Shown here in pieces: positions 7,778-61,513 of a stretch of DNA of 64,000 bases (positions are counted from its first letter, which is position 1; every line of letters begins with the position of its first letter). Both the position numbers and the translations under genes were made by a program. The stretch is from Candidatus Kerfeldbacteria bacterium. Lineage in GTDB: Bacteria; Patescibacteriota; Patescibacteriia; SBBC01; CAIJZX01. The notes below the pieces were generated by a model. The model made no database searches. It was not told the origin of the DNA and saw nothing but the letters and a program-made list of their open reading frames with translations. The stretch is from the NCBI GenBank assembly GCA_963731735.1, contig CAVSWO010000002.1, positions 470,001-534,000 of the forward strand, written 5' to 3'.

Positions 7778-7819
7778 AGCTTAGATTGTAACATAGTGAT
7801 ATACTCAAGGTAGTTTTCT

Positions 7820-9160
7820 ATGGATTCCTCGATTTTCAAGGCTTACGACATTCGCGGTACGGTACCGGAACAACTCAACGAGAAGATTGCCAACGATATC
7901 GGCCGCGCCTTTTCCGTTTTTCTCAAGGCCTCGTCGGTGATTGTCGGTCGCGATATGCGGCTGTCCGGTCCGGGTTTGTTTAAGGCGGTTACCGATGGTT
8001 TGATGCAACAGGGCACCGATGTGATTGATATCGGGATGGTCAGCACCGACCAGTTTTACTTTGCCTGCGCGCATTTGGGCCTGCCGGGCATGATGGTCAC
8101 TGCTTCGCATAATCCGCCCGAGTACAACGGGTTTAAAATGGTCCGCAAGATGCCGCAGCTGTTGAGCAAAGAAGAGGGCATTCAGTCATTGCATGATTTG
8201 ATTGCGGTTGGCGAATGGCCAACCCCGCAGAAGCGCGGCCAAAAACAAGAACGTGATATTCACGCCGCTTTCCTGCGACAAATCCTGTCGATGATTGATC
8301 TGCGGGTGATCCGGCCGATGAAGGTGATTGCGGATACCGCGAATGGCATGGTGGGGCCCGGACTCACGGCGCTCTTTCCCCGATTGCCAGAAATTTCGTT
8401 TACCGGCATGTACCTTGAACCAGACGGTTCGGTACCGAACCACGGACTCGACCCGCTGAAACCAGAAAATCGAGCCGAGCTCCAGGCGCGCGTGGTGAAG
8501 GAAAACTTTGCGATTGGATTTGCATTTGACGGAGATGGCGATCGATTTTTCGCGATCGATGATCGCGGACAGTTTGTGCCGGGTGATTTTATGACGGCGT
8601 TATTGGGCCAATACCTGCTCGAAAAAAACCCCGGCGCCAATATTATCTATGATGCGCGTGCTTCGTGGGCGGTGCCGGATTTAATCACCGCCGCCGGCGG
8701 TAAACCATTGATTGAGCGGGTCGGCCACACCTACATCAAGCGCCGCATGGCTGCCGAGAACGCGGTTTTCGGGGGTGAAGTCACCGGGCATTATTATTTT
8801 CGCGATTTCTTTTTCGCTGACTCAGGCATGATCCCCATGTTGCTGGTTTTGGAAATGCTCTCGGTCAAACAAAAGAAACTTTCTGAACTCCTTCAACCCC
8901 TCGAGCAGAAATATTTTATCTCCGGCGAAATTAATTCGAAAGTAGCTGGTGATCCAAAGCAGATCCTGAAAGCAATTGCGGAAAAATTCGCTGACGCAAA
9001 AATTGAACAGATTGACGGTGTTTCGGTAACCTATCCAGACTGGCACTGTAACGTCCGGACTTCAAACACCGAGCCGCTGGTTAGATTAAATCTCGAAGGC
9101 AAGACGCCGGAGCTGATGGCCCAGAAGCGTGATGAGGTGCTGGCAATGATTCGATCATAA
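7820..9160 (+). CDS. phosphomannomutase/phosphoglucomutase-family phosphohexomutase
   Basis: FKAYDIRG N-terminal motif and TASHNPPEYNGFK active-site serine loop. 446 aa. The substrate (Man, Glc or GlcN) cannot be told from the sequence. Confidence 0.8.
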   Translation: MDSSIFKAYDIRGTVPEQLNEKIANDIGRAFSVFLKASSVIVGRDMRLSGPGLFKAVTDGLMQQGTDVIDIGMVSTDQFYFACAHLGLPGMMVTASHNPPEYNGFKMVRKMPQLLSKEEGIQSLHDLIAVGEWPTPQKRGQKQERDIHAAFLRQILSMIDLRVIRPMKVIADTANGMVGPGLTALFPRLPEISFTGMYLEPDGSVPNHGLDPLKPENRAELQARVVKENFAIGFAFDGDGDRFFAIDDRGQFVPGDFMTALLGQYLLEKNPGANIIYDARASWAVPDLITAAGGKPLIERVGHTYIKRRMAAENAVFGGEVTGHYYFRDFFFADSGMIPMLLVLEMLSVKQKKLSELLQPLEQKYFISGEINSKVAGDPKQILKAIAEKFADAKIEQIDGVSVTYPDWHCNVRTSNTEPLVRLNLEGKTPELMAQKRDEVLAMIRS

Positions 9161-9186
9161 CCAGTCGCGCAGGGCAGAATTCGATA

Positions 9187-10617
9187 TTAGCTTGAACGAC
9201 CTTCGTGTTCTTTGGGTAGGAGCTGGTCAAGCGTGACGAAGGTGAAACCACGCTGGCGTAAATTTGCAATGATTACCGGGAGGGCCGTAATTGTGGATTG
9301 ACGGTTGCGAACCTGTCCTGCCGCGGGTCCATCCTGCACACCATCATGCAGTAAAATAATGCTCCCCGATCGAGTGTGATTCACGACCCGGTGGACAATA
9401 GTCGAAGCAGTTACCAATAAATAGTCCCGAGGATCGACAGACCAATCGACTAATCGCAGCTGTTGGTGATCAGCCTCGTAAAGTAATTGCGGACTGCGTA
9501 ATCCGTGCGGAGGTCGAAAATAAACCGGCTGGGTGCCAGTCACGCGGAAGATTTCTTGAGACGTGTTGCGTAAATCATCCGCAATATGACTGGGTGAAAA
9601 ATAGGGCAGACGAAACGAGTGGTTCCAAGAGTGGTTTCCAATTGAAAACCCGTGTGAAGTGACATATCGAGCGGTTGCTGGATCAGCTGCAATGCTCCGT
9701 CCGACTTCGAAAAATGTGGCGGGGACTTGCGCTTGATGTAATATGTCGACGATTTGACGGGTGGCCTGACCATTCGGACCGTCATCAAACGTCAGGGCTA
9801 CCAATTGTTTATCGTCATCACCACGTACCATGACTTGGCCGAAGTCAGTGGCGGTTGGCCACCAGCTGAGATAGGCGACGGTGATGAGCGTGAGCAGCGC
9901 CACGGTCCATCGTAACCGCCGCTGCGCCAACCGTTCTAACTCAGCGCGTGAGCGGCGAATGTTTCTGAACGACCAGAAGAGCGGCCGATGAAATACAACC
10001 ATCCAGACATGATTGAGCACGTACCGTGCACCCTGCGAGTACGGTTGGGCTTGAAAACGACGAGCGCTCGTGGTTACAATCATCCGTCGATCAAAAAGGA
10101 TTTCCCCATGTCGTTGGATGGCCCATCCAAAAGCGACATCACTGGCCAAATTGTATTCGGGGTTAAAGCCACCAACGGCGAGAGCGGTCTGACGCCGGAC
10201 AGCCATATTGCTGCCCAGTAAAATGCGCCGATAGAACCAACGCGACCATGATAGCAATCGCATGTTTTGGAATTGAATTGGCCCGGTGACGGCTAGAACT
10301 TTCGGATTTTGAAAGTCTTCAAGCAGGTGGTCTAACCAGTTAGGCGCAACAACCGAATCCGCGTCAGTAAAAGCCACCAATGCTGTGCTGACCGCCAGTA
10401 ATCCGCGTTGGAGAGCATACACGACACCCTGCCGAGGTTCTGAAATGACCGTCGCGCCAAACTTTCGGGCGATGGCGGCAGTCTGATCGGTCGAATTATT
10501 ATCAATCACATATATTTTGACACCAAGTCGCTTGGCCGGTAATTGCAAAGCACGCAAACAATGGGGAAGTAATTCTTCCTCGTTATATGCAGGGATTACA
10601 ACACTAAGTTGAGACAT
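9187..10617 (-). CDS. bifunctional family-2 glycosyltransferase / CE4 polysaccharide deacetylase (NodB-homology) fusion protein
   Basis: The N-terminus (VVIPAYNEEELL...IDNNSTDQT...FTDADS) is a GT-A/GT2 (DPM1/ArnC-like) domain. A predicted TM helix (WTVALLTLITVAYLSWW) follows. The C-terminus (LTFDDGPNG...NHSWNH...LLHDG) is a NodB/CE4 deacetylase domain. The ATG at 10617 (MSQLSVVIPAY) is preferred over the ORF-track start at 10647. Confidence 0.7.
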   Translation of the reverse strand: MSQLSVVIPAYNEEELLPHCLRALQLPAKRLGVKIYVIDNNSTDQTAAIARKFGATVISEPRQGVVYALQRGLLAVSTALVAFTDADSVVAPNWLDHLLEDFQNPKVLAVTGPIQFQNMRLLSWSRWFYRRILLGSNMAVRRQTALAVGGFNPEYNLASDVAFGWAIQRHGEILFDRRMIVTTSARRFQAQPYSQGARYVLNHVWMVVFHRPLFWSFRNIRRSRAELERLAQRRLRWTVALLTLITVAYLSWWPTATDFGQVMVRGDDDKQLVALTFDDGPNGQATRQIVDILHQAQVPATFFEVGRSIAADPATARYVTSHGFSIGNHSWNHSFRLPYFSPSHIADDLRNTSQEIFRVTGTQPVYFRPPHGLRSPQLLYEADHQQLRLVDWSVDPRDYLLVTASTIVHRVVNHTRSGSIILLHDGVQDGPAAGQVRNRQSTITALPVIIANLRQRGFTFVTLDQLLPKEHEGRSS

Positions 10618-10686
10618 ATGCACCGGGGGTAAGCACAAGACCCGCAAAACCTTATCTGATCAAACAATCAATCCTTGCCGGCCGGG

Positions 10687-11736
10687 CTATCGTAGCCCCA
10701 TTTTTTCCTGGACCGCTTGGAGTGTTGGTTCAGCCGCGGCCGAAGCTTTGGCCGCTCCGTCGGTGATGACCTGATCGACAAATTTCTTATCGTGAACAAG
10801 CTGGGCCCGACGTTTGCGGAAGGGCGCAAAATGACTATTGATGATGGCCGCCAAGGCCGGTTTGAATTCTGAAAATTGAACCTCACCGGCTTCGGCCGCG
10901 GCTTTCCAAATCTTAATATCCGACGGTTCGCCTAAAGCTAACAGTATGGTAAACAAATTTCGAACGCCGTGGAATTGCTTGACCAAATTCGGATCTCCTT
11001 TCCATCCGGCCTGGGCGGCTTTGCCGCTGCCCTCGGCCGCCGTGAAGGCTTCGCGGATAACTCGCGGTTCGCTCGAGCTGACGGCTTTTTTGAGCTTGGC
11101 TTGAATCGTAGCTTCATCGTCGTTCAGGCCAATGCCGCCGCCTAAACTTTTACTCATTTTTTGTTCCGGGTTTGCCAAATCCATGATCCGGCGGCCGCTG
11201 GTATGGAGGGCTTTTGGCTCCGGGAAAGTCTGGCCGTAGAGCCGATTGAATTTCTTGGCTAGATCGCGTGCTAACTCCACATGCTGCGCCTGATCGTCAC
11301 CAACCGGAACTTGCGCCGGTTTGTAGAGCAGGATATCGGCGGCTTGCAGAATCGGGTAATTTAAGATGCCGGCGTTCTGAAAATCTTTGTGCTGTTCAGA
11401 TTTTTCTTTAAATTGCACCATCCGCTGAAGTTCGCCGATCGGCGTGATGGTGTTGAGGAGCCACATCAGCTGGGTATGGGCGGGCACCTGCGACTGCACA
11501 AAAATAGTACCCTGCTTCGGATCGAGACCGGCGGCCAGATAATCAATGACAACATTCCGGACCTGGTCAGGCAGACTTTTCGGGTCATAGGGTGTGGTGA
11601 TGGCATGCAAATCGGCCACCATATAAAAGACGTCATGGTTGGCCTGCAGATCGATCCACTGCTGAATGGCGCCCAGGTAATTTCCGAGATGGAGCTCGCC
11701 GGAAGGGCGAATACCGGACAGGATGCGGGGGGACAT
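10687..11736 (-). CDS. trpS: tryptophan--tRNA ligase
   Basis: ILSGIRPSGELHLGNYLG (HIGH-class motif), KMSKS, and the TrpRS-specific block. The internal start at 11736 (MSPRILSG) is preferred over the ORF-track 11805. Confidence 0.9.
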   Translation of the reverse strand: MSPRILSGIRPSGELHLGNYLGAIQQWIDLQANHDVFYMVADLHAITTPYDPKSLPDQVRNVVIDYLAAGLDPKQGTIFVQSQVPAHTQLMWLLNTITPIGELQRMVQFKEKSEQHKDFQNAGILNYPILQAADILLYKPAQVPVGDDQAQHVELARDLAKKFNRLYGQTFPEPKALHTSGRRIMDLANPEQKMSKSLGGGIGLNDDEATIQAKLKKAVSSSEPRVIREAFTAAEGSGKAAQAGWKGDPNLVKQFHGVRNLFTILLALGEPSDIKIWKAAAEAGEVQFSEFKPALAAIINSHFAPFRKRRAQLVHDKKFVDQVITDGAAKASAAAEPTLQAVQEKMGLR

Positions 11737-11816
11737 AATGGGATTATTGTAGCATAGCTGGTGCTGTTTCAGCACTTGATCGCGAGCGGTAACCGATCGA
11801 ACCACTAACCACTCGC

Positions 11817-13583
11817 TTAGACTTCAACGATGACCGGAAAAATCATCGGCTGGCGTTGGGTGCGCTTGAATAGCATGCGCTCCATGGCCCGTCGTATCTT
11901 TTCTTGCAAATGTTTTTCATTCATGCGGGCACCCGGCTTTTCATCCTGTAAGACCTTCTTGGTCTCGCGGACCATGTCATTAATCAGTCGACCTTGCTCC
12001 TTCATGTGGGTGAAACCGCGTGAGATGATATCGACCTTCTGGACCTGTTTCGAGCGGCTTTTCAGTTGGGCCACCACAATCACCATGCCCTCATCAGCCA
12101 ACTGATTCCGGTCACGCAGGACAATGTGGTTGACGTCACCTAAACCCAGTCCGTCCACGAAGACATGTTCAATTTTGTACCGGTGATTGGTGACATACCC
12201 TTTGCCGTTGGCGAATTCGACTACCTGACCATTGTCGGCCATCAATATTTGCTTTTCGGGGACTCCCGCCTTGATCGCGATTTTCTTATTCTCGGCCTGA
12301 TGGAGAAAACTGCCCTCGATCGGCATAAAATACTTCGGGCGTACCATTTTGATGAAACGCTCAATATCGTCTTGCTTGGCGTGACCGCCGGCGTGAATAT
12401 CCAACAGCTTAGCGTCAATAATTTCGGCCCCTTCGCGCAGCAACCCATCTTTCAAACGAGCCACCGAACGTTCGTTGCCGGGTACGACCGATGACGAAAA
12501 AGCCACCAAGTCGCCGGCTTCAACGCGTAAGTACTTGTGTTCGCGATTGGCGATCCGGTTGAGCACCGCATTATCTTCGCCTTGCGCGCCGGTACACAAA
12601 ATAATGTAGCGGTTGCCGGGTAATCGCTGAATTTCATCCCACGGCAAAATCGTGTTGGGTTTACAGCGGATATACCCGAGCTGTTTACCGATTTCAATAT
12701 TGGTTTTCATCGAATATCCTTCGACTAACACCTTCCGATTATATTTTTCAGCCAGGGAGATTATTTGCTGGACGCGGGACAAGAGTGACGCGAAGGTCGC
12801 AAAGATAATCCGGCCCTTGGTTTGGGTAAACATGGTGTCGATATTCTTCTCGATTTCCGATTCCGAAATTTGGACACCCGGGTAAATGGCGCTGGTTGAG
12901 TCGCACAGCAGGCACAAGACATTTCGCCGACCCAACTGTTGAATGAAATCTAAGTCGGTTCGGTTTGAAACGTGTGCCCGATCATCAAGTTTAAAGTCAC
13001 CGGTATGGACGAAAATCCCGGCTGGGGTTTCAACCACTACGCCCAGACTGCCCGGAATATTGTGGGACAAGCCGAAGAATTCCAAGCGGAAAGGGCCGGC
13101 TTTCGTGCGGTCGCGAGTTTTCACGGTATTCAGCCGCAGTTTTTTTCCGGGCGCGATCTCTTCCATTTTTTTCTGGAGCATAGCGCCGGTTAAATTGCTG
13201 GTGAAAATTGGCGGGTTGCCGAGTTCCGGAATCCAGTGCGGAACACCGCCGGTGTGGTCATAGTGTCCGTGGGTAACGACCACGCCGCGGATTTGTTTTT
13301 CTTTACCGCGTAAGAAGGACAAGTCGGGAATAATATAATCCACCCCCGGCATATCATCTTCCGGCCACTGCAATCCGATATCGATAATCAGATACTCGTC
13401 CTGGTAAGCTAAGACCGTACAGTTGCGTCCGCCCGTTTCTTCGTAGCCGCCAACCGGGATGATTTGCAAAGCATCCTTGGCGTTCTTGATCGGTTGTTCC
13501 CCGGCATGGGGTTTTGGTTTTGGTCGACGAGTATATCGCGGACCATCTGGTTTGCGCATGCGCGCTTTTGGCCGTTTGGCCAT
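11817..13583 (-). CDS. rnj: ribonuclease J (metallo-beta-lactamase/beta-CASP RNase)
   Basis: VTHGHYDHTGG metal-binding motif, beta-CASP region and a basic N-terminal tail. 588 aa. Confidence 0.9.
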   Translation of the reverse strand: MAKRPKARMRKPDGPRYTRRPKPKPHAGEQPIKNAKDALQIIPVGGYEETGGRNCTVLAYQDEYLIIDIGLQWPEDDMPGVDYIIPDLSFLRGKEKQIRGVVVTHGHYDHTGGVPHWIPELGNPPIFTSNLTGAMLQKKMEEIAPGKKLRLNTVKTRDRTKAGPFRLEFFGLSHNIPGSLGVVVETPAGIFVHTGDFKLDDRAHVSNRTDLDFIQQLGRRNVLCLLCDSTSAIYPGVQISESEIEKNIDTMFTQTKGRIIFATFASLLSRVQQIISLAEKYNRKVLVEGYSMKTNIEIGKQLGYIRCKPNTILPWDEIQRLPGNRYIILCTGAQGEDNAVLNRIANREHKYLRVEAGDLVAFSSSVVPGNERSVARLKDGLLREGAEIIDAKLLDIHAGGHAKQDDIERFIKMVRPKYFMPIEGSFLHQAENKKIAIKAGVPEKQILMADNGQVVEFANGKGYVTNHRYKIEHVFVDGLGLGDVNHIVLRDRNQLADEGMVIVVAQLKSRSKQVQKVDIISRGFTHMKEQGRLINDMVRETKKVLQDEKPGARMNEKHLQEKIRRAMERMLFKRTQRQPMIFPVIVEV

Positions 13584-36042: not shown

Positions 36043-36069
36043 GAGAGGCGGGCCGCCTCTCGTTTTTTA
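36043..36069 (+). terminator. rho-independent terminator after rpoD
   Basis: GAGAGGCGG-g-CCGCCTCTC followed by GTTTTTTAT. Confidence 0.7.
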
Positions 36070-36219
36070 TCTCAGTCGGGATGGCAATCAAAGACAAAAT
36101 TGCTCTTCGGGAGGTATTGGGTACAATAGGCGCAGACACATCACAGTTGAAACGAGAAATTATGCCAAAAAATCTGTTGAGCTCGAGCAAAAATTTCTCT
36201 CTCGGCAAACAATCTTAAT

Positions 36220-38583
36220 CAGGATGTTTTTGTTAACAACATTTTTTGTGGGCGGATTGGCTGTGCTGGCGGCTCTTATCATACCGTTGACGGTAACGAT
36301 CGAACCACCCCGATTTCAAGCTGAGTAATGGCAAATACACGATCACAGCGGGGGATTTTGTCATTGTTAATGATGATGGCAGCGGTTGAAGCTGTGTATA
36401 AGGTTGCGGGGTTGGCGCACGACATTACGATTGATGGAAATTTCAAAACAATCACTACGCAAGGCAAAGCGGCGGTAGAGATCGGAGATTTCGATGACGG
36501 CGCTGCATACGTGACGCTAAGAATCTTAATTACACGGAGGCGTCTCAACTACGGCGATAAAGTCAATCATATTACTTGAAAATCTAAGCGTAATAGCATT
36601 AATCTCGGGCAGCGATGATGATATTGTGCGAGACAATATCGTTGGTGGCGGTGGCATCAGGTTACAACGGAGACATTGACGGCTTTTGGCCTTCGGACGC
36701 AGGTGATGAACAATGTGTGACGGGCGGCGCGAACGTAAAACTTTGTTTGAAGTGGTGATGGGAAAGTGCACATGTCTCGGACGGACACGGTGTAACGGCA
36801 ATACTTCACGATGATCGCAATGATCGCACAGAAGCACGGCGCAGTTGTATTCGCTGCGCACGCATGTTACGTTTACGATAATAACATCTGGTGGACGAGT
36901 AACATTGGATTGTACATGCGGGATGAGGCGATGACGGACTGTACGAAAACAATACTTTCGTAGCATAATCAAGAGCTTATCCGCATAGCATCGGGAGAAT
37001 GCCCGACAAAACCTTCCCAGCACGCAACCGCTTTCATAATAACATCTTTCAGTCCGATTTTTCACAGGCAACCTTTTTCCAGGGGATGGGTTCCAACAAC
37101 CAATTACGACAACACTTTTTGGGGTGGGGATCGGGGAACGTTGTTACAAAACGATGGCAACATGTACGATCACAACACGTTTTATCTGACGGGTGGTGGA
37201 GTGATGGATATGGATTATGAAAAGGAAACGCCGGACACCTGGACCAATAATATATTTAGCTATGCGTCTGGGAATGTTTTTGACCTACAAGATTGGACTT
37301 TCGGCTGGTACACCGGGGATTACAATTTGTTCTTCAATCGATCCGGAAACGTGACGTTTGATGGTTACGCCTCCTTAAGCGCCTGGCGAACAGCCAGCGG
37401 TAATCAGGACGACGTCGATTCAATTGAGGCCGATCCGCAATTCAACAACCCGAGTTTAGGAGATTTTACCATTCCGATTACTTCGCCAGCTCATCAAGCC
37501 GCCTCAGACGGATCCGATATTGGAGCCTGGCCATATGGGAGCACTCCGCCGCCTCCGCCGCCACCACCAGAGTGTACAGAAAACTGGCAATGCGATAACT
37601 GGAGCACGTGTGTGGATGGCCAGCAATCCCGGACATGTACCGATTTGAATAACTGCGGTACAACTGTCAACCAACCCCCGCTAACTCGAAAAGCTGTACC
37701 GGAAGCTGCACGGAAAATTGGGACTGTACCGACTGGAGCCTTTGTCTGAATAACCAGCAATCCCGGACATGTACCGATTTGAATAATTGCGGTACAACGC
37801 TTAATCGACTCCACTGACCCAAAGCTGTTCGTCATGCTCGGAAATCTGGCGATGCGGCGACTGGACGAATTGCCAAAACGGCCAGCAATCCCGGACTTGT
37901 TACATGCGAATCTTTGTGGCACATCCGTCACGCGGCCAGCCTTGACCCAATCTTGCGTCGATACGTCGTTGTCTTGTGCGCTGTCTGATCTGTCGTGCTA
38001 CAGCTGCGCGACCAACTGGTCGGACGACAGCACCAATCACAACCGAATCCTGGCGCCGAGCGGGGGATCACGACCAGGTGGTGTCTGCCTAAGTACCGTT
38101 TCAAGGCCGGCGTTGTGCGATGGCACAAACGCGATTGAGGACGTGACGCTCAGTGCGGGCAGCCTGAGCTATGGTCAGTCACTGACCGTGTCGGTCGATT
38201 ATGCCTGCTACAAAGACTCCAGCCATAATGCCGACGATCTGACGCTGTGGTATTTTAATGGCTCGGCTTGGAAAAAATTAAAAACCTGGACGTCCGCTTC
38301 CGGTAATCTTCCGGGCTGCAGTTCGGCGCCGCCCACCTGGCCATCTCCGTTGATCTCACCGTTGCCAGTCAGTGCCAAGAGCGGTACCGTCAGCTGGACC
38401 TTCACGCCCGATCGCGTAAAGGGAACGCACTACGTTCGGGCGTTCGAAGATTCGACCGGCGCGTCCTCGGGTGACACACCTTGTCCGACCACCATGAGCT
38501 GGGGCAATATCGATGACCATGGATTTACCGTCACGAACAGTGGCGGTGGCGGAGGGGGGCCTAGAAAAATCCCAACCGAATAA
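36220..38583 (+). pseudogene. frameshift-fragmented gene for a large secreted right-handed beta-helix protein with Cys-rich repeats and a C-terminal domain (or uncorrected sequencing errors)
   Basis: The pieces sit in three different frames. There is a signal-anchor ORF (MFLLTTFFVGGLAVLAALIIPLTV, 36220-36327). Beta-helix-like peptides follow (ISGSDDDIVRDNIVGGGG; NRFHNNIFQSD; ...ADPQFNNPSLGDFTIPITSPAHQAASDGSDIGAWPYG). Then a Pro8 linker and three Cys-rich repeats (C[TS]E[NI]W.C..W..C..GQQSRTC...), each in a different frame. A 249-aa C-terminal ORF (37834..38583) closes the gene. At least four frameshifts in total. Confidence 0.5.
37573..37960 (+). repeat. three tandem direct repeats (periods about 134 and 128 bp) encoding the Cys-rich motif
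   Basis: The core cagcaatcccggacatgtaccgatttgaataa(c/t)tgcggtacaac occurs at 37621 and 37755. A diverged copy lies at 37883. The repeat periods are not multiples of 3, so the frame slips at each unit. Confidence 0.6.
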
Positions 38584-38622
38584 AAAAAGAGGTTCCGCTC
38601 CAGCAACTGCCAGAGCGGAACC
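38582..38622 (-). terminator. rho-independent terminator for the NHL-repeat gene
   Basis: The minus strand reads GGTTCCGCTC-tggcagttgctg-GAGCGGAACC followed by TCTTTTTTTATT. Confidence 0.65.
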
Positions 38623-38640
38623 AGTACATAGAACGTATCG

Positions 38641-39594
38641 TTACTTGCGGTAGTTGACCTTGAGGCTCCCCCAGGTCAGCTTTTCGGTGGGGGTGGTGGT
38701 TGATCCGAATACTTCGATTCGATGATTGTTACGGTCGGAAACGTACACGTCGCCATCCGGGCTGACTGCCACACCGAAGGGGTTGTCGAACTGTCCGGAA
38801 TCGTGTCCATACGATCCCCAGGCCGACATCCATTCACCGAACGCTGTGAATTGCTTGACCTGGTGACTCAGGCGGTCGGCCACCAGCCGGTCGCCAGTAG
38901 CATCAATCGCGATCCCGACCGGGTACGCAAGCTGCCAAATATCACCACCGGGCGTTCCCCAGGTAGCCAGCATACCGCCATCGGGATTGAAGGTTTGGAT
39001 CTGGCCGTTGCCCGTGTCCGAAATGGAAATGAGACCGCAGGCATCAATCGCAATCCCACAGGGAGATTGAAATTGGCCATCCATTGACCCCGAGCTCCCC
39101 CAGGCGAGCATGAATGCGCCGTCGGGCCCGAACTTCTGGATACGATGATTGCCGGTATCGGCCACATAGACGCAACCATCCGGTCCGACTGCAATACCGT
39201 ACGGATTGTCGAACTGACCTGGGCAAGATCCGAAAGTGCCCCAGGCGTGGATCAGCACGCCATCAAGCGTGTAAACCAGCACATGGGCCAGCGAAGCATC
39301 GACCACATACAGTCGATCGTTGCCAACAGCCAGCCCGATGGGAGCGGATAATTCGCGTCCGCTCCACCCGGCCATATACTCGCCCGAAGTCGTGAACTTC
39401 TGAATGCGTCGATTGCCAGTGTCGGAGACGTAGATGTTTCCCTGCGGATCGGTGGCGACACCAGTTGGATGGTTGAACTGCCCGGCACCGCAGCCAAGCG
39501 AACCCCAGATGAACCGAAATTTGGCTGCATTGACCGGGGTCGACTGCAGACAAAGCAGCATGATGAACAAGAAGAGCGCCTGCGCATAACGCAT
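38641..39594 (-). CDS. secreted NHL-repeat (six-bladed beta-propeller) protein
   Basis: Signal peptide MRYAQALFLFIMLLCLQSTPVNA. Six repeats of the NHL pattern (GQFNHPTGVATDPQGNIYVSDTGNRRIQKF ... GQFDNPFGVAVSPDGDVYVSDRNNHRIEVF). Confidence 0.8.
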   Translation of the reverse strand: MRYAQALFLFIMLLCLQSTPVNAAKFRFIWGSLGCGAGQFNHPTGVATDPQGNIYVSDTGNRRIQKFTTSGEYMAGWSGRELSAPIGLAVGNDRLYVVDASLAHVLVYTLDGVLIHAWGTFGSCPGQFDNPYGIAVGPDGCVYVADTGNHRIQKFGPDGAFMLAWGSSGSMDGQFQSPCGIAIDACGLISISDTGNGQIQTFNPDGGMLATWGTPGGDIWQLAYPVGIAIDATGDRLVADRLSHQVKQFTAFGEWMSAWGSYGHDSGQFDNPFGVAVSPDGDVYVSDRNNHRIEVFGSTTTPTEKLTWGSLKVNYRK

Positions 39595-40953: not shown

Positions 40954-42326
40954 GTCGGAGCCGCACAACCGTAAAAAACTTTCGGACTAAGCTGCAGAAT
41001 CGCGCGCAGCGCATCTTAAAGGAAAACTGGGTGCAACTTGATGGCCAACGTGGCTTTACCCGGCCGGCGCATTTATATCCGTACCAGTGGAACTGGGACT
41101 CGGGGTTTATTGCCTACGGGTACGCGCATGTACACCCGCAACGGGCGATTCAGGAGTTACGGAGTTTACTTGACGGACAATGGACCAACGGCTTCCTGCC
41201 GCATATTATTTTTCATCGGGTCAAGGGAGAACATCGCCCCTATTTCCCCGGCCCGACGTTTTGGGAATCCCGAAAAACGAACCGGGCCGCGCCGGCGGCG
41301 GTGGCCACCTCTGGTTTGACGCAGCCGCCGATGGTAACCTTGGCCGTCTGGCACACGTATCACGCGCTGCACCGCCGCCAGCCGCAGGCGGCTCGCCGGA
41401 TGCTTCAGGAATTTTTTCCGAAGCTGCTCGCCCTGCACACATTTTTGTACACGGCCCGTGATCCGGAAAAGAGCGGGCTGCTGACCATCGCCCATCCTTG
41501 GGAATCAGGGTTTGATAATTCCCCGCGTTGGGACGCGGTGCTCAAGCGCATCCGGCCGCGGCGCGTGCCGGTCTACCACCGGCACGATCGTCAGCAAGCC
41601 GATCGGGGACACCGGCCAACTGATCAAATCTACGATCGGTTTGTTGATCTGGCCTTGCGCTTAAAACGCTCGGGGTACCCGGGCCGGATCCCGGCCAGCC
41701 ATCCGTTTCGAATTAAGGACAAAGTTTTTTCATCGATCGGATACCTGGGCAACCTGCACTTACAGCAAATGGCAATAGTGCTGGGCCAGCCCCACCAGGC
41801 AATTACCGGCTGGATAAAACGCTTTGAAGGCTCGCTGTTCAAACAACTTTGGAATCCAGATACACAAACCTTTAGTGATTACGATCTGGTTCGACGTCGT
41901 CGACTACCACCAAAAACGGTGGCCGGGCTGTTGCCGTTAATGACCGGATTATTACCCAGCCGGCAAGTCGAACGGATGATCAGAATTTTGCACCAGGCGA
42001 ATTTTTGTGGGCAAAAAGCCTGTGCCGTTTCCTTGACACCAACCGTTGGGATTTATCAGAAAGAGTTTAACCCGGAGATGTATTGGCGGGGTCCAATTTG
42101 GGTGAATATCAACTGGTTTTTGTGGCGGGCTTTGCGGCTGTATGGATTGCACGAACAAGCCCGTCATCAAGCCGCGCATATTACCCATCTCATCGCGCAT
42201 CAAGGTTTTTGGGAATATTATTCACCCACCACGGGTCAGGGACTCGGCGCCAAACATTTTTCCTGGACCGCCGCACTGGCAACAGATCTGCTCCATACGC
42301 ATCGTCAATCCACCAACAAATTGTGA
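40950..42326 (+). CDS. (alpha/alpha)6-barrel glycoside hydrolase, GH63/GH37/GDE_C-like (glucosyl- or mannosyl-glycerate hydrolase-like)
   Basis: LYPYQWNWDSGFIAYGYA resembles the GH63 (F.WDEGF) and GH37 (YYWDSY) signature loops. 458 aa. The WESGFDNSPRWD acidic block also fits this clan. Confidence 0.5.
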   Translation: MSRSRTTVKNFRTKLQNRAQRILKENWVQLDGQRGFTRPAHLYPYQWNWDSGFIAYGYAHVHPQRAIQELRSLLDGQWTNGFLPHIIFHRVKGEHRPYFPGPTFWESRKTNRAAPAAVATSGLTQPPMVTLAVWHTYHALHRRQPQAARRMLQEFFPKLLALHTFLYTARDPEKSGLLTIAHPWESGFDNSPRWDAVLKRIRPRRVPVYHRHDRQQADRGHRPTDQIYDRFVDLALRLKRSGYPGRIPASHPFRIKDKVFSSIGYLGNLHLQQMAIVLGQPHQAITGWIKRFEGSLFKQLWNPDTQTFSDYDLVRRRRLPPKTVAGLLPLMTGLLPSRQVERMIRILHQANFCGQKACAVSLTPTVGIYQKEFNPEMYWRGPIWVNINWFLWRALRLYGLHEQARHQAAHITHLIAHQGFWEYYSPTTGQGLGAKHFSWTAALATDLLHTHRQSTNKL

Positions 42327-42335
42327 TATACTTAT

Positions 42336-43575
42336 GGTGATGCATTATTCGCGCTACACGGCCGCCATCTTCCTGGTCACCCTGATAATTTTTGGGTCTT
42401 CAATTCAAACTGCGCGGACCGCGACCGTGGCCGAACGAACCGCCGGCCGGATTTTACTGCAGGTCGAACGTAATGGCGAAGCTTGGTACGTGTATCCGAA
42501 AACCTTAACTCGTTTTTATCTCGGACGGCCGAAAGACGCATTTGACGTGATGCGTTTTCAGGGCCTCGGTATCACCAATGCAAATTTAGCAAAAATTCCA
42601 GTTGCTGGAAGTTCCGATTCGGGCGACCAGGCTTTGCGCGATCGTTTAGCCGGGTATATTTTACTCCAGGTCGAACGGAACGGTGAGGCGTGGTATGTCT
42701 ATCCGGTTACGAAGCAGCGCTATTTCCTCGGGTATCCGGAGGACGCCTGGAACTTGATGCGTAATTTGGGCTTAGGCATCTCGAACAGCGATTTGGCCCA
42801 AATTCCGGTTGATAATGGCGTTCGGGTTGAACATCAAGGCGTGGTGTCCTCACGCGGGACGTATACAGTTGACTACCTGACGTTTGATCGGAAAAACCCG
42901 GAATTAAAAATCACCACGGATACAGGCAATGACGGTAACTGCGCATCGAATTGCACGGTCCTTAGCCTGGGTTCCTACGTGACGCGGCGAAATGCCTTAG
43001 CCGGTATTCATGGCACTTATTTCTGTCCGGCCGATTACAGCAGTTGTTCGAGCGAGGTCAACCATTACTTTTTTCCGGTCTTTAACAGTTATAGCCGAGT
43101 CTTCATCAATGGCGACCGCATCAAATATACCGCCGAACCAATGGTGGCCTTTGATTCATCCAATCATCCATTCTTCTTCCGCCAGACCAAGCAGTTTACC
43201 AGCGAGCAAGATTTCTATAATGACTTTGCGAACGTATCAATCGCGGCCGGTGGGAATGGACAACTTCGCGCAGCCATCAGCAACGGACCGGCACTGATTG
43301 ACAACGGACAAAATGTGGTCGGACAGTATGCGTTGGATTCAAAACAATCCAGCGTTAAATCATATCGCGGCGCCTTGGGCTGGAAAGGCGATACAATTTA
43401 TCTGTTGGTCGTCAGCGGTGCAACCGTCACCGATTCAGCGGCCGTGATGGAGGCTCTTGGACTCGACTACGCGATTAATCTCGACGGTGGTGGCTCAACC
43501 GCGCTTTACCAAGCCGGACGGTATATCATTGGTCCTGGCCGGAATTTACCAAATGCCGTCCTCCTCTCCCAGTAA
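42336..43575 (+). CDS. secreted protein: two copies of a novel repeat module fused to a phosphodiester-glycosidase (NAGPA/DUF2233-like) domain
   Basis: Signal anchor MVMHYSRYTAAIFLVTLIIFG. Repeats RILLQVERNGEAWYVYPKTLTRFYLGRPKDAFDVMRFQGLGITNANLAKIP and YILLQVERNGEAWYVYPVTKQRYFLGYPEDAWNLMRNLGLGISNSDLAQIP. The C-terminal block DYAINLDGGGSTALYQAGRYIIGPGRNLPNA matches the PF09992 core. Confidence 0.6.
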
Positions 43576-60728: not shown

Positions 60729-61256
60729 CTACCGGACAAATGAAATAAATATCCCGATCAACACCAGCTGCATCATGATGCCGACACTGAGCGGAATATC
60801 GCGGCGAATAATTTCATGATGGAGGAGATTGTGAAACCAATTCTGGGTCCGGACCACATACCGCAACCCGGTTGGCTTGGTAATGGCGTACAACCACCGG
60901 ACGAGGAATAACCAGGAAAAGCGCTCATGAATGACCGGAAAAAGGTAACTCAAAAAATCGGGCAGCACCGCGCCCAAGATCGCGATCACCAGCAGGTTGG
61001 TGGTACCGGCCGGATGTTGTCCGATTGCCCAAAGCGTTAACCCCAGCAACCCCAGTACATCCAGGGTATTAATCAAAACCACCCGGCGGTAGCGCTTCTG
61101 CACCTTCCATTCCTCATCGTGATATAAATGCTCATCGCCGTGTGGGATGAAATCGAGCACAAAGTGCGAGGCGAAAGCTAAGCCAAAGACCGCCAGCGGG
61201 TCATTCGTAACCCGGCTGAGCGCGATTCCGGCGGCGGCATGGGTGGTCAGAAACAT
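60729..61256 (-). CDS. YdjM/DUF457-like membrane-bound metal-dependent hydrolase (paralog)
   Basis: SHFVLDFIPHGDEH motif plus ILGAVLPD. The internal start MFLTTHAAAGIAL at 61256 was chosen because the ORF-track start at 61370 would overlap tRNA-fMet. Confidence 0.5.
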   Translation of the reverse strand: MFLTTHAAAGIALSRVTNDPLAVFGLAFASHFVLDFIPHGDEHLYHDEEWKVQKRYRRVVLINTLDVLGLLGLTLWAIGQHPAGTTNLLVIAILGAVLPDFLSYLFPVIHERFSWLFLVRWLYAITKPTGLRYVVRTQNWFHNLLHHEIIRRDIPLSVGIMMQLVLIGIFISFVR

Positions 61257-61335
61257 GGCCTCAAGTATATCACGGACTTGACGGGAAGGGCTTTTTTCGA
61301 TATCCTTGAGCCTGCTCAAGGGAGCTTTTTCACAT

Positions 61336-61410
61336 CGCGGAGAAGTGTAACGGCTGCACGGCGGGCTCATAATCCGCAGGCAGGGGGTTCGACTCCCCCC
61401 TCCGCAACCA
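61336..61410 (+). tRNA. initiator tRNA-fMet (anticodon CAT)
   Basis: CGCGGAGAAGTGTAACGGCTGCACGGCGGGCTCATAATCCGCAGGCAGGGGGTTCGACTCCCCCCTCCGCAACCA. It shows the C1xA72 mismatch and a G-rich anticodon stem. It closely parallels E. coli tRNA-fMet (CGCGGGG...GGGCTCATAACCCGAAGG...CGCAACCA). Confidence 0.7.
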
Positions 61411-61436
61411 AATAAATTATTACGACCGTAGACTGC

Positions 61437-61513
61437 GCCAGGGTAGCTCAGTTGGTTAGAGCGCGGGACTCATAAGCCCGAGGTCGGCGGTTCGATCCCG
61501 CCCCCTGGTACCA
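61437..61513 (+). tRNA. elongator tRNA-Met (anticodon CAT; alternatively a tRNA-Ile2 lysidine substrate)
   Basis: GCCAGGGTAGCTCAGTTGGTTAGAGCGCGGGACTCATAAGCCCGAGGTCGGCGGTTCGATCCCGCCCCCTGGTACCA. The D and T arms match elongator Met/Ile2 tRNAs. G1-U72 and A31-G39 are unusual. Confidence 0.6.

Follow-up and report, generated by a model that had tools for sequence, protein, structure and literature searches.

A conserved Candidatus Kerfeldbacteria surface-protein gene with two patches of one- and two-base frame shifts, best read as local consensus or assembly error

Assemblies of genomes and metagenomes from long reads are known to retain frameshifting insertions and deletions (indels) (bioRxiv 10.1101/2021.08.23.457338). 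In long-read and hybrid assemblies, indels of 1-2 nt split conserved genes, and the damage can be corrected with the help of reference proteins, the use for which proovframe is intended (bioRxiv 10.1101/2021.08.23.457338). Multiple frame shifts are also found in the pseudogenes of Mycobacterium leprae and Rickettsia, where an open reading frame (ORF) is disrupted and intact homologs exist elsewhere. Here we describe a gene at 36220-38583 of a 64,000-nt stretch from a Candidatus Kerfeldbacteria bacterium (contig CAVSWO010000002.1, positions 470,001 to 534,000; the whole stretch is called the window) that resembles both kinds of case: it is split by shifts of 1-2 nt, and its relatives are intact. 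The closest described proteins are those annotated by NCBI as 'right-handed parallel beta-helix repeat-containing protein' from Candidatus Kerfeldbacteria, with which the window protein is collinear over its full length. Unlike the members of that family that we compared (P0001-P0005), the window copy is broken into at least 21 pieces in three frames.

We found that the interval lacks a long ORF spanning it. The sizeable ORFs are 37141-37749 (202 aa) and 37834-38583 (249 aa), and a three-frame translation has protein-like pieces in all three forward frames across the interval, which is bounded by the rpoD terminator hairpin and by a strong hairpin downstream (Table 1). Using our own frameshift-aware dynamic programme with the homologs P0002, P0001 and P0004 and a subfamily profile, we threaded a protein of 789 residues through 36224-38580 by hopping between the three forward frames. 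An earlier first-pass annotation, made from the nucleotide sequence by itself, had proposed that one ancestral gene could be put together from three frames, and the reconstruction agrees with this. All of the peptides it quoted are present (SDDDIVRDNIV, NRFHNNIFQ, ADPQFNNPSLGDFTIP...DGSDIGAWPYG, a Pro8 linker and three CxE(N/I)WxCxxW..C...QQSRTC units), and the architecture it named (signal anchor, beta-helix, Pro linker, three Cys units and a C-terminal domain) is that of intact homologs. More fully, the protein begins with a signal anchor, which is followed by a right-handed beta-helix of the pectate-lyase-like kind, capped by a DUF5123-like segment; after a Pro linker come three modules of 41 residues with six Cys each, and then an immunoglobulin (Ig)-like beta-sandwich and a Gly-rich tail. 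Judged from its sequence, the interval 36224-38583 holds one gene, whose product belongs to a conserved but uncharacterised family of surface proteins of Patescibacteria (Kerfeldbacteria-type).

A search with the frame-corrected 3' 481 residues retrieved intact proteins of 725-790 aa (P0001-P0005 and P0013), with E-values down to 1e-119. The order of domains is common to these proteins and to the full-length homologs in L003-L009. The 789-aa translation aligned end to end with P0001, P0002, P0004 and P0005 at 43-51% identity and with P0003 at 36%; since the best homolog is only 51% identical, the shifts cannot be placed to the base. Looking for intact relatives was a check that the first-pass annotation had suggested, and full-length homologs do exist, each in a single frame. 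That is, every relative examined has one reading frame, whereas the window copy has at least 20 frame changes. The relatives found in a scan of GTDB genomes come from metagenome-assembled genomes (MAGs) of Candidatus Kerfeldbacteria and other Patescibacteria, and many further proteins from Patescibacteria and DPANN archaea match by the Cys unit alone. The ORF at 37141-37749 matched DUF5123 (PF17161) with 32.4 bits and an E-value of 2.2e-7, below the gathering cutoff of 35.1 bits; the homologs carry precomputed matches to Beta_helix (PF13229) and to the same DUF5123 family. No NCBIfam family was found for the reconstructed protein, and its C-terminal domain was modelled as a generic Ig-like beta-sandwich. 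By analogy with other surface proteins that have a beta-helix, we would expect the intact protein to be displayed after export and to bind or cleave surface polysaccharide. Two relatives, L002 and L009, have an rpoD that is 74% identical to that of the window overall and 78-79% over its conserved part (tblastn). In both, rpoD-dnaG, a DUF1684 gene and a C39-like peptidase gene lie near the copy of the beta-helix gene, and the neighbourhood is therefore conserved.

Our conservative reconstruction consists of 21 pieces joined by 20 frame changes, 8 of them '+1' and 12 '-1', with the frames in the order 2,3,1,3,2,1,2,3,1,3,2,3,2,1,3,1,3,1,3,2,1; shifts of the two signs alternate irregularly along the gene. 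The changes are strongly clustered. There are 17 in 36298-37106 and 3 in 37686-37903, compared to none in 37106-37686 and none in 37903-38583. All events thus fall within 47% of the gene, and clustering of this degree has a probability of ~2e-7 under a uniform rate. The two open stretches, of 581 and 681 nt, align normally with the homologs and leave 1260 nt (53% of the gene) free of shifts. In the first patch, the changes are near 36299, 36386, 36519, 36538, 36550, 36576, 36659, 36692, 36717, 36743, 36767, 36860, 36877, 36930, 36965, 37001 and 37106, and there are probably 3-4 more within 36759-36806. When the frameshift penalty was lowered, the profile alignment had 22 changes before the third Cys unit, or about 24 overall. 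In that alignment ~12 shifts fall inside 36520-36810, a local density of ~1 indel per 24 nt, or up to about 4%.

Several properties of the damage bear on its cause. All of the shifts are of 1-2 nt, in both directions, and the reconstructed 789 aa is the length of intact relatives, so there have been no large deletions. Several shifts form compensating pairs 17-26 nt apart, and the out-of-frame stretch between them fits the family (LRTQVMNNV, YGDKVNHIT, THVTFT). Despite the density of shifts, motifs such as LRTQVMNNV, VTGGANVKL, THVTFT and DDGLYENNTF are still recognisable. We found no nonsense codon in the correct frames anywhere in the reconstructed gene. In simulations, random substitution at 5% left the whole gene without a stop with a probability of 0.0125, and at 11% it left the damaged patch without one with a probability of 0.047. 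The window protein keeps 86% of the invariant columns of six other full-length members of the family, and those members themselves keep 79-99%. Compared to eight intact relatives, the damaged patch has an identity ~10-14 points below expectation, and there is no excess divergence in the clean part. We rejected garbled translation at the junctions as the cause of this low identity because the deficit holds against all eight relatives and survives removal of +/-3 residues around each junction. Where homologs have RNDPPPEAT the window reads RND-RTEA, and the strongly conserved HPCPR motif is altered as well. The first-pass annotation had described the 5' part as low in GC, and it is (0.471; the whole window has 0.532). 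A 5' part of lower GC is seen in homologous genes too (0.536 versus 0.609 in L001, and 0.58 versus 0.627 in L002).

On balance, we favor an intact gene whose sequence was garbled locally in the consensus or the assembly, an explanation that we infer from the pattern of the damage. In this reading 36298-37106 and 37686-37903 would be stretches of poorly supported consensus, possibly derived from long reads, of low coverage or variable between strains, that polishing left uncorrected. The organism's own gene would then probably be intact and the frame-shifting repeats would have no biological meaning. We favor technical error because the indels are of 1-2 nt and of both signs, the patchiness is extreme, the length is kept, there are no stops and the surroundings are flawless. 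Shifts at this density in a sequence whose homology is still obvious are incompatible with ordinary neutral decay at usual indel-to-substitution ratios. Close pairs of indels that escaped the reconstruction, together with some substitution errors, would also account for the extra divergence of the damaged patch.

Several points weigh against a technical cause. The ~61 kb of flanking sequence is free of such errors, so the error process would have to be strictly local. Frameshift errors in long-read or hybrid assemblies are normally contig-wide and enriched at homopolymers, whereas the shifts here keep to two patches within a single gene and have no obvious association with homopolymers; because the density of homopolymers is the same in damaged and clean parts, we rejected them as the cause of the clustering. 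Dense one-base indel errors would be unusual if this assembly is from short reads only. In addition, the divergence (10-14 points) and AT-richness (GC 0.471) of the patch would fit relaxed selection equally well.

The main rival is a genuine pseudogene, a surface-protein gene that was inactivated in this lineage and has since accumulated small indels. The DNA would then be as reported, and no full-length protein would be made. A substantial but clearly minor share of the probability goes to this rival. In its favor, the gene cannot be translated as one ORF while its relatives are intact, and the flawless flanking genes are what an accurate assembly would give. Neutral decay should, however, strike the whole gene, and 53% of it has neither a shift nor excess divergence. 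The lower identity of the 5' part, also away from the junctions, with the clean parts unaffected, is a partial signal of decay. The greater AT-richness of this part than in homologs relative to their loci, and the altered RNDPPPEAT and HPCPR motifs with a 9-nt duplication at that place, also speak for a pseudogene. On the other hand, the complete lack of nonsense codons, the restriction to events of 1-2 nt and the retention of family-invariant residues at the level of functional members are not what decay predicts, and the indel-to-substitution ratio implied by ~1 indel per 24 nt is far above normal. Full length has been kept, contrary to the deletion bias that Mira, Ochman and Moran reportedly described for bacterial pseudogenes in 2001. 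The frameshift pseudogenes of M. leprae and Rickettsia differ from the window gene in the same respects, as it has no stops, no larger deletions, clustered shifts and conserved invariant residues. It is also the only case in 64 kb of a streamlined, densely coding sequence with no second pseudogene.

Other explanations place the cause in the repeats or outside the DNA. The first-pass annotation had described Cys-rich repeats that shift the frame at every unit. There are three direct repeats, starting at 37579, 37713 and 37841 and 73-77% identical as DNA, and the start-to-start periods of 134 and 128 bp that it gave are correct. Each copy lies in a frame of its own. The shifting is not a property of the repeats, since at least 17 of the at least 20 shifts lie upstream, in the beta-helix, and therefore the repeats are not the source of the frame changes. 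The same distribution makes it very improbable that a collapsed or mis-assembled tandem array, also suggested, caused the frame breaks. Three shifts do fall inside the repeat region, and units 1 and 2 align over 106 nt at 77% identity with an exact run of ~33 nt, long enough to tangle an assembly graph. However, the upstream shifts are in non-repetitive sequence, and the number of units (3), their length (41 aa) and their spacing (42-45 aa) equal those of intact homologs. From first to last Cys the window units are 125, 122 and 122 nt long, whereas 88 of 92 intact homologous units measure 123 nt, or 41 codons. That is, each is one or two bases out of register, and none is truncated or fused. 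A phase-variable or contingency-type adhesin was suggested too. Such a gene would be switched on and off by changes in repeat length, and the internal repeats and Pro8 tract of this surface protein might seem to make it a candidate. We consider this reading effectively refuted. There is no simple-sequence tract in the coding region: Tandem Repeats Finder reported two 2-copy 9-nt repeats only, homopolymers reach 6 nt at most, and the single microsatellite in 36162-38583 is TC x4 at 36196, outside the broken frame and 5' of the start at 36224. The Pro tract is a 9-nt unit present twice, which preserves the frame, and units of ~128-134 nt that are 73-77% identical are not prone to slippage. Moreover, at least 20 independent shifts could not be reversed, or switched, by one slippage event. 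It is also conceivable, but hardly credible, that the DNA is correct and that the protein is still made by massive programmed recoding (multiple ribosomal frameshifts) or by indel editing of the mRNA. The damage does affect only the frame, with no nonsense codons and conserved residues kept, and a stop codon is present at 4 of the 20 junctions. In contrast, a slippery heptamer is near only 1 of 20, the junctions share no motif, +1 and -1 shifts have no regular order, and all relatives encode the protein in a single frame. To our knowledge, recoding of this kind has no bacterial precedent. We give equally little credence to the more general proposal of either correction of more than 20 one-base shifts at the level of RNA or the ribosome, or localised, indel-specific hypermutation of Patescibacteria surface-protein genes: there is no junction motif, no precedent and no relative with the same pattern. 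The probability left after these readings is assigned to other causes.

The features of the locus are listed in Table 1. Directly 5' of the frame-2 hydrophobic segment is the start of a frame-3 ORF, MPKNLLSSSKNFSLGKQS (36162-36224). With its positive charge, this segment seems to be the real N-terminus of the signal anchor. The true start may therefore be the ATG at 36162 in frame 3, which would require one extra -1 shift near 36215.

Table 1. Coordinates of features in and around the broken gene (window positions)
Feature	Coordinates	Strand	Remarks
GC-rich hairpin followed by a T run	36043..36061	+	Terminates the dnaG-rpoD unit that lies upstream; bounds the locus on its 5' side
N-terminal hydrophobic signal anchor MFLLTTFFVGGLAVLAALIIPLTVT, frame 2	36224..36298	+	Aligns with N-terminal hydrophobic segments of P0003, P0004 and P0009
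Damaged patch 1: first two-thirds (N-terminal) of the right-handed beta-helix, split into at least 17 pieces whose frames alternate	36298..37106	+	Frameshift-aware alignments to P0001, P0002, P0004 and the subfamily profile
9-nt tandem duplication, ATGATCGCA x2, exact	36811..36828	+	Site of the RNDPPPEAT motif conserved in close homologs
Clean stretch 1: C-terminal part of the beta-helix and cap, single open frame 1	37105..37542	+	DUF5123-like match
Pro-rich linker TPPPPPPPP, in frame	37543..37569	+	
Cys-rich TSR-like unit 1, 125 nt (TSR, thrombospondin type-1 repeat)	37573..37697	+	Frame 1 to frame 3 at ~37687
Cys-rich TSR-like unit 2, 122 nt, 1 base short of 41 codons	37707..37828	+	Frame 3 to frame 2 at ~37809
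Cys-rich TSR-like unit 3, 122 nt, 1 base short	37835..37956	+	Frame 2 to frame 1 at ~37901
Clean stretch 2: C-terminal Cys-containing Ig-like beta-sandwich, Gly6 tail and stop, single open frame	37957..38583	+	Within the 249-aa ORF
Hairpin with a 14-bp stem	38591..38622	.	Shared terminator of the convergent broken gene and NHL-repeat gene

The rest of the window appears sound. Long ORFs occupy 93% of it, and the remaining ~61 kb is densely coding and has full-length genes. Among these, uvrA, groEL, the phosphoenolpyruvate synthase gene, dnaG, rpoD, an M17 peptidase gene and the gene for a GH63-like enzyme, with others, match Pfam models over their full length. We saw no other broken gene in the 64 kb. 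An error running through the whole assembly was rejected, since ORF pairs elsewhere whose overlap looked suspicious all turned out to be distinct, complete genes and coding coverage was 93%. We also rejected a paralog or template copy of the gene, as used in gene conversion or by diversity-generating retroelements: tblastn of the family against the whole window gave nothing beyond the locus, and there are no long repeats besides the three Cys units. The neighboring NHL-repeat gene is at 38641-39594 on the minus strand, convergent with the broken gene. When GTDB genomes and JGI metagenomes were scanned with the reconstructed protein, neither a conspecific contig nor a relative suited to base-by-base comparison came up, and the best match in a JGI scan with the NHL-repeat gene was 47% identical. 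Exact-protein look-ups of four window proteins found no record, a plasmid blastn search found no match, and Rfam identified only tRNAs in the window. Two of these are adjacent tRNA-Met(CAT) genes, 27 nt apart, at 61336-61513, and the first of them overlaps the 5' end of the maximal minus-strand ORF 60729-61370. We also noted an intact NAGPA-type phosphodiester glycosidase gene at 42142-43575 in whose product ~60 internal residues are duplicated in tandem (ILLQVERNGEAWYVYP..., residues about 104-223). Segments that are repeated in L011, L018 and L022 match this duplicated part.

Members of the family differ at the C-terminus. A Gly6-7-P-x-K-x-P tail closes P0001 and the window protein (38548-38583), whereas P0002-P0005 and P0013 have, in place of the Gly tail, a fourth Cys unit and a conserved D-x-T-x-P-S-x-V-S-N-L tail. 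The two types may be alternative C-terminal anchoring or sorting signals. The beta-helix/Cys-repeat family is one that expands locally. In L005, from a Kerfeldbacteria MAG, three intact paralogs of the gene lie in tandem (7788-13566), and in L002 a second gene, encoding a beta-helix and Big_7, lies directly 3' of the gene for P0002.

The Cys-rich unit is found well beyond this architecture. In homologs its consensus is CTENWxCxxWSxCxNxxQTRTCTDxNxCGTTxxxPxxxQSC, and at least 54 of 101 homologs (P0001-P0101) have 1-4 copies. The proteins that carry it have very different N-terminal domains, including S-layer-like PF07752, PG_binding PF01471, Big_7 and FG-GAP/fn3, and their named sources include Patescibacteria, Woesearchaeota, Aenigmatarchaeota and Nanoarchaeota. 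A Pfam scan of the units gave no family at E <= 0.1, and no NCBIfam model matched either. A profile of 45 units compared with PDB sequences matched a 24-aa toxin (E 0.077) and no TSR domain. The first-pass annotation had noted a loose resemblance of the Cys/Trp spacing to TSR domains (TSP_1, PF00090). The unit does have some likeness to these, being a small module in which six Cys are accompanied by conserved Trp and Arg. An AlphaFold2 model of the unit has a pLDDT (predicted local distance difference test) of 95.5, and 38-40 of its 41 residues superpose at 2.2-2.5 A on TSR domains of semaphorin-5A, complement C6/C7/C8, MIC2 and properdin. The unit is thus predicted from modelling to adopt a TSR-like fold. 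It differs from TSR domains in length (41 residues versus about 55) and in Cys spacing, and where these have layers of WxxWxxW and RxRxR, the unit consensus has W5, W10 and the single invariant Arg R20. Our literature search on TSR-like modules in Candidate Phyla Radiation bacteria turned up just thrombospondin type-3 repeats in giant Omnitrophota proteins, which are not relevant here.

Our results indicate that the locus is an ordinary finding: either the sequence of a real, conserved gene contains an artefact or, with lower probability, the gene is a simple pseudogene. Its main use is as a warning. Gene callers would list it as several small hypothetical ORFs or as a 'pseudogene', and a repeat period that is not a multiple of three could be mistaken for a phase-variation device. 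Since the one-base shifts are spread over two patches of an otherwise conserved gene, this locus should be flagged for a check at the level of reads, or for frame correction, before biological claims are made. If the shifts are real, they would add one more dead surface-protein gene to a streamlined episymbiont genome, a matter of modest importance. The part of this work with more lasting value, and its one point of wider interest, is the 41-residue six-Cys module. It is common in surface proteins of Patescibacteria and DPANN archaea, has no model in Pfam or NCBIfam, and merits definition as a family.

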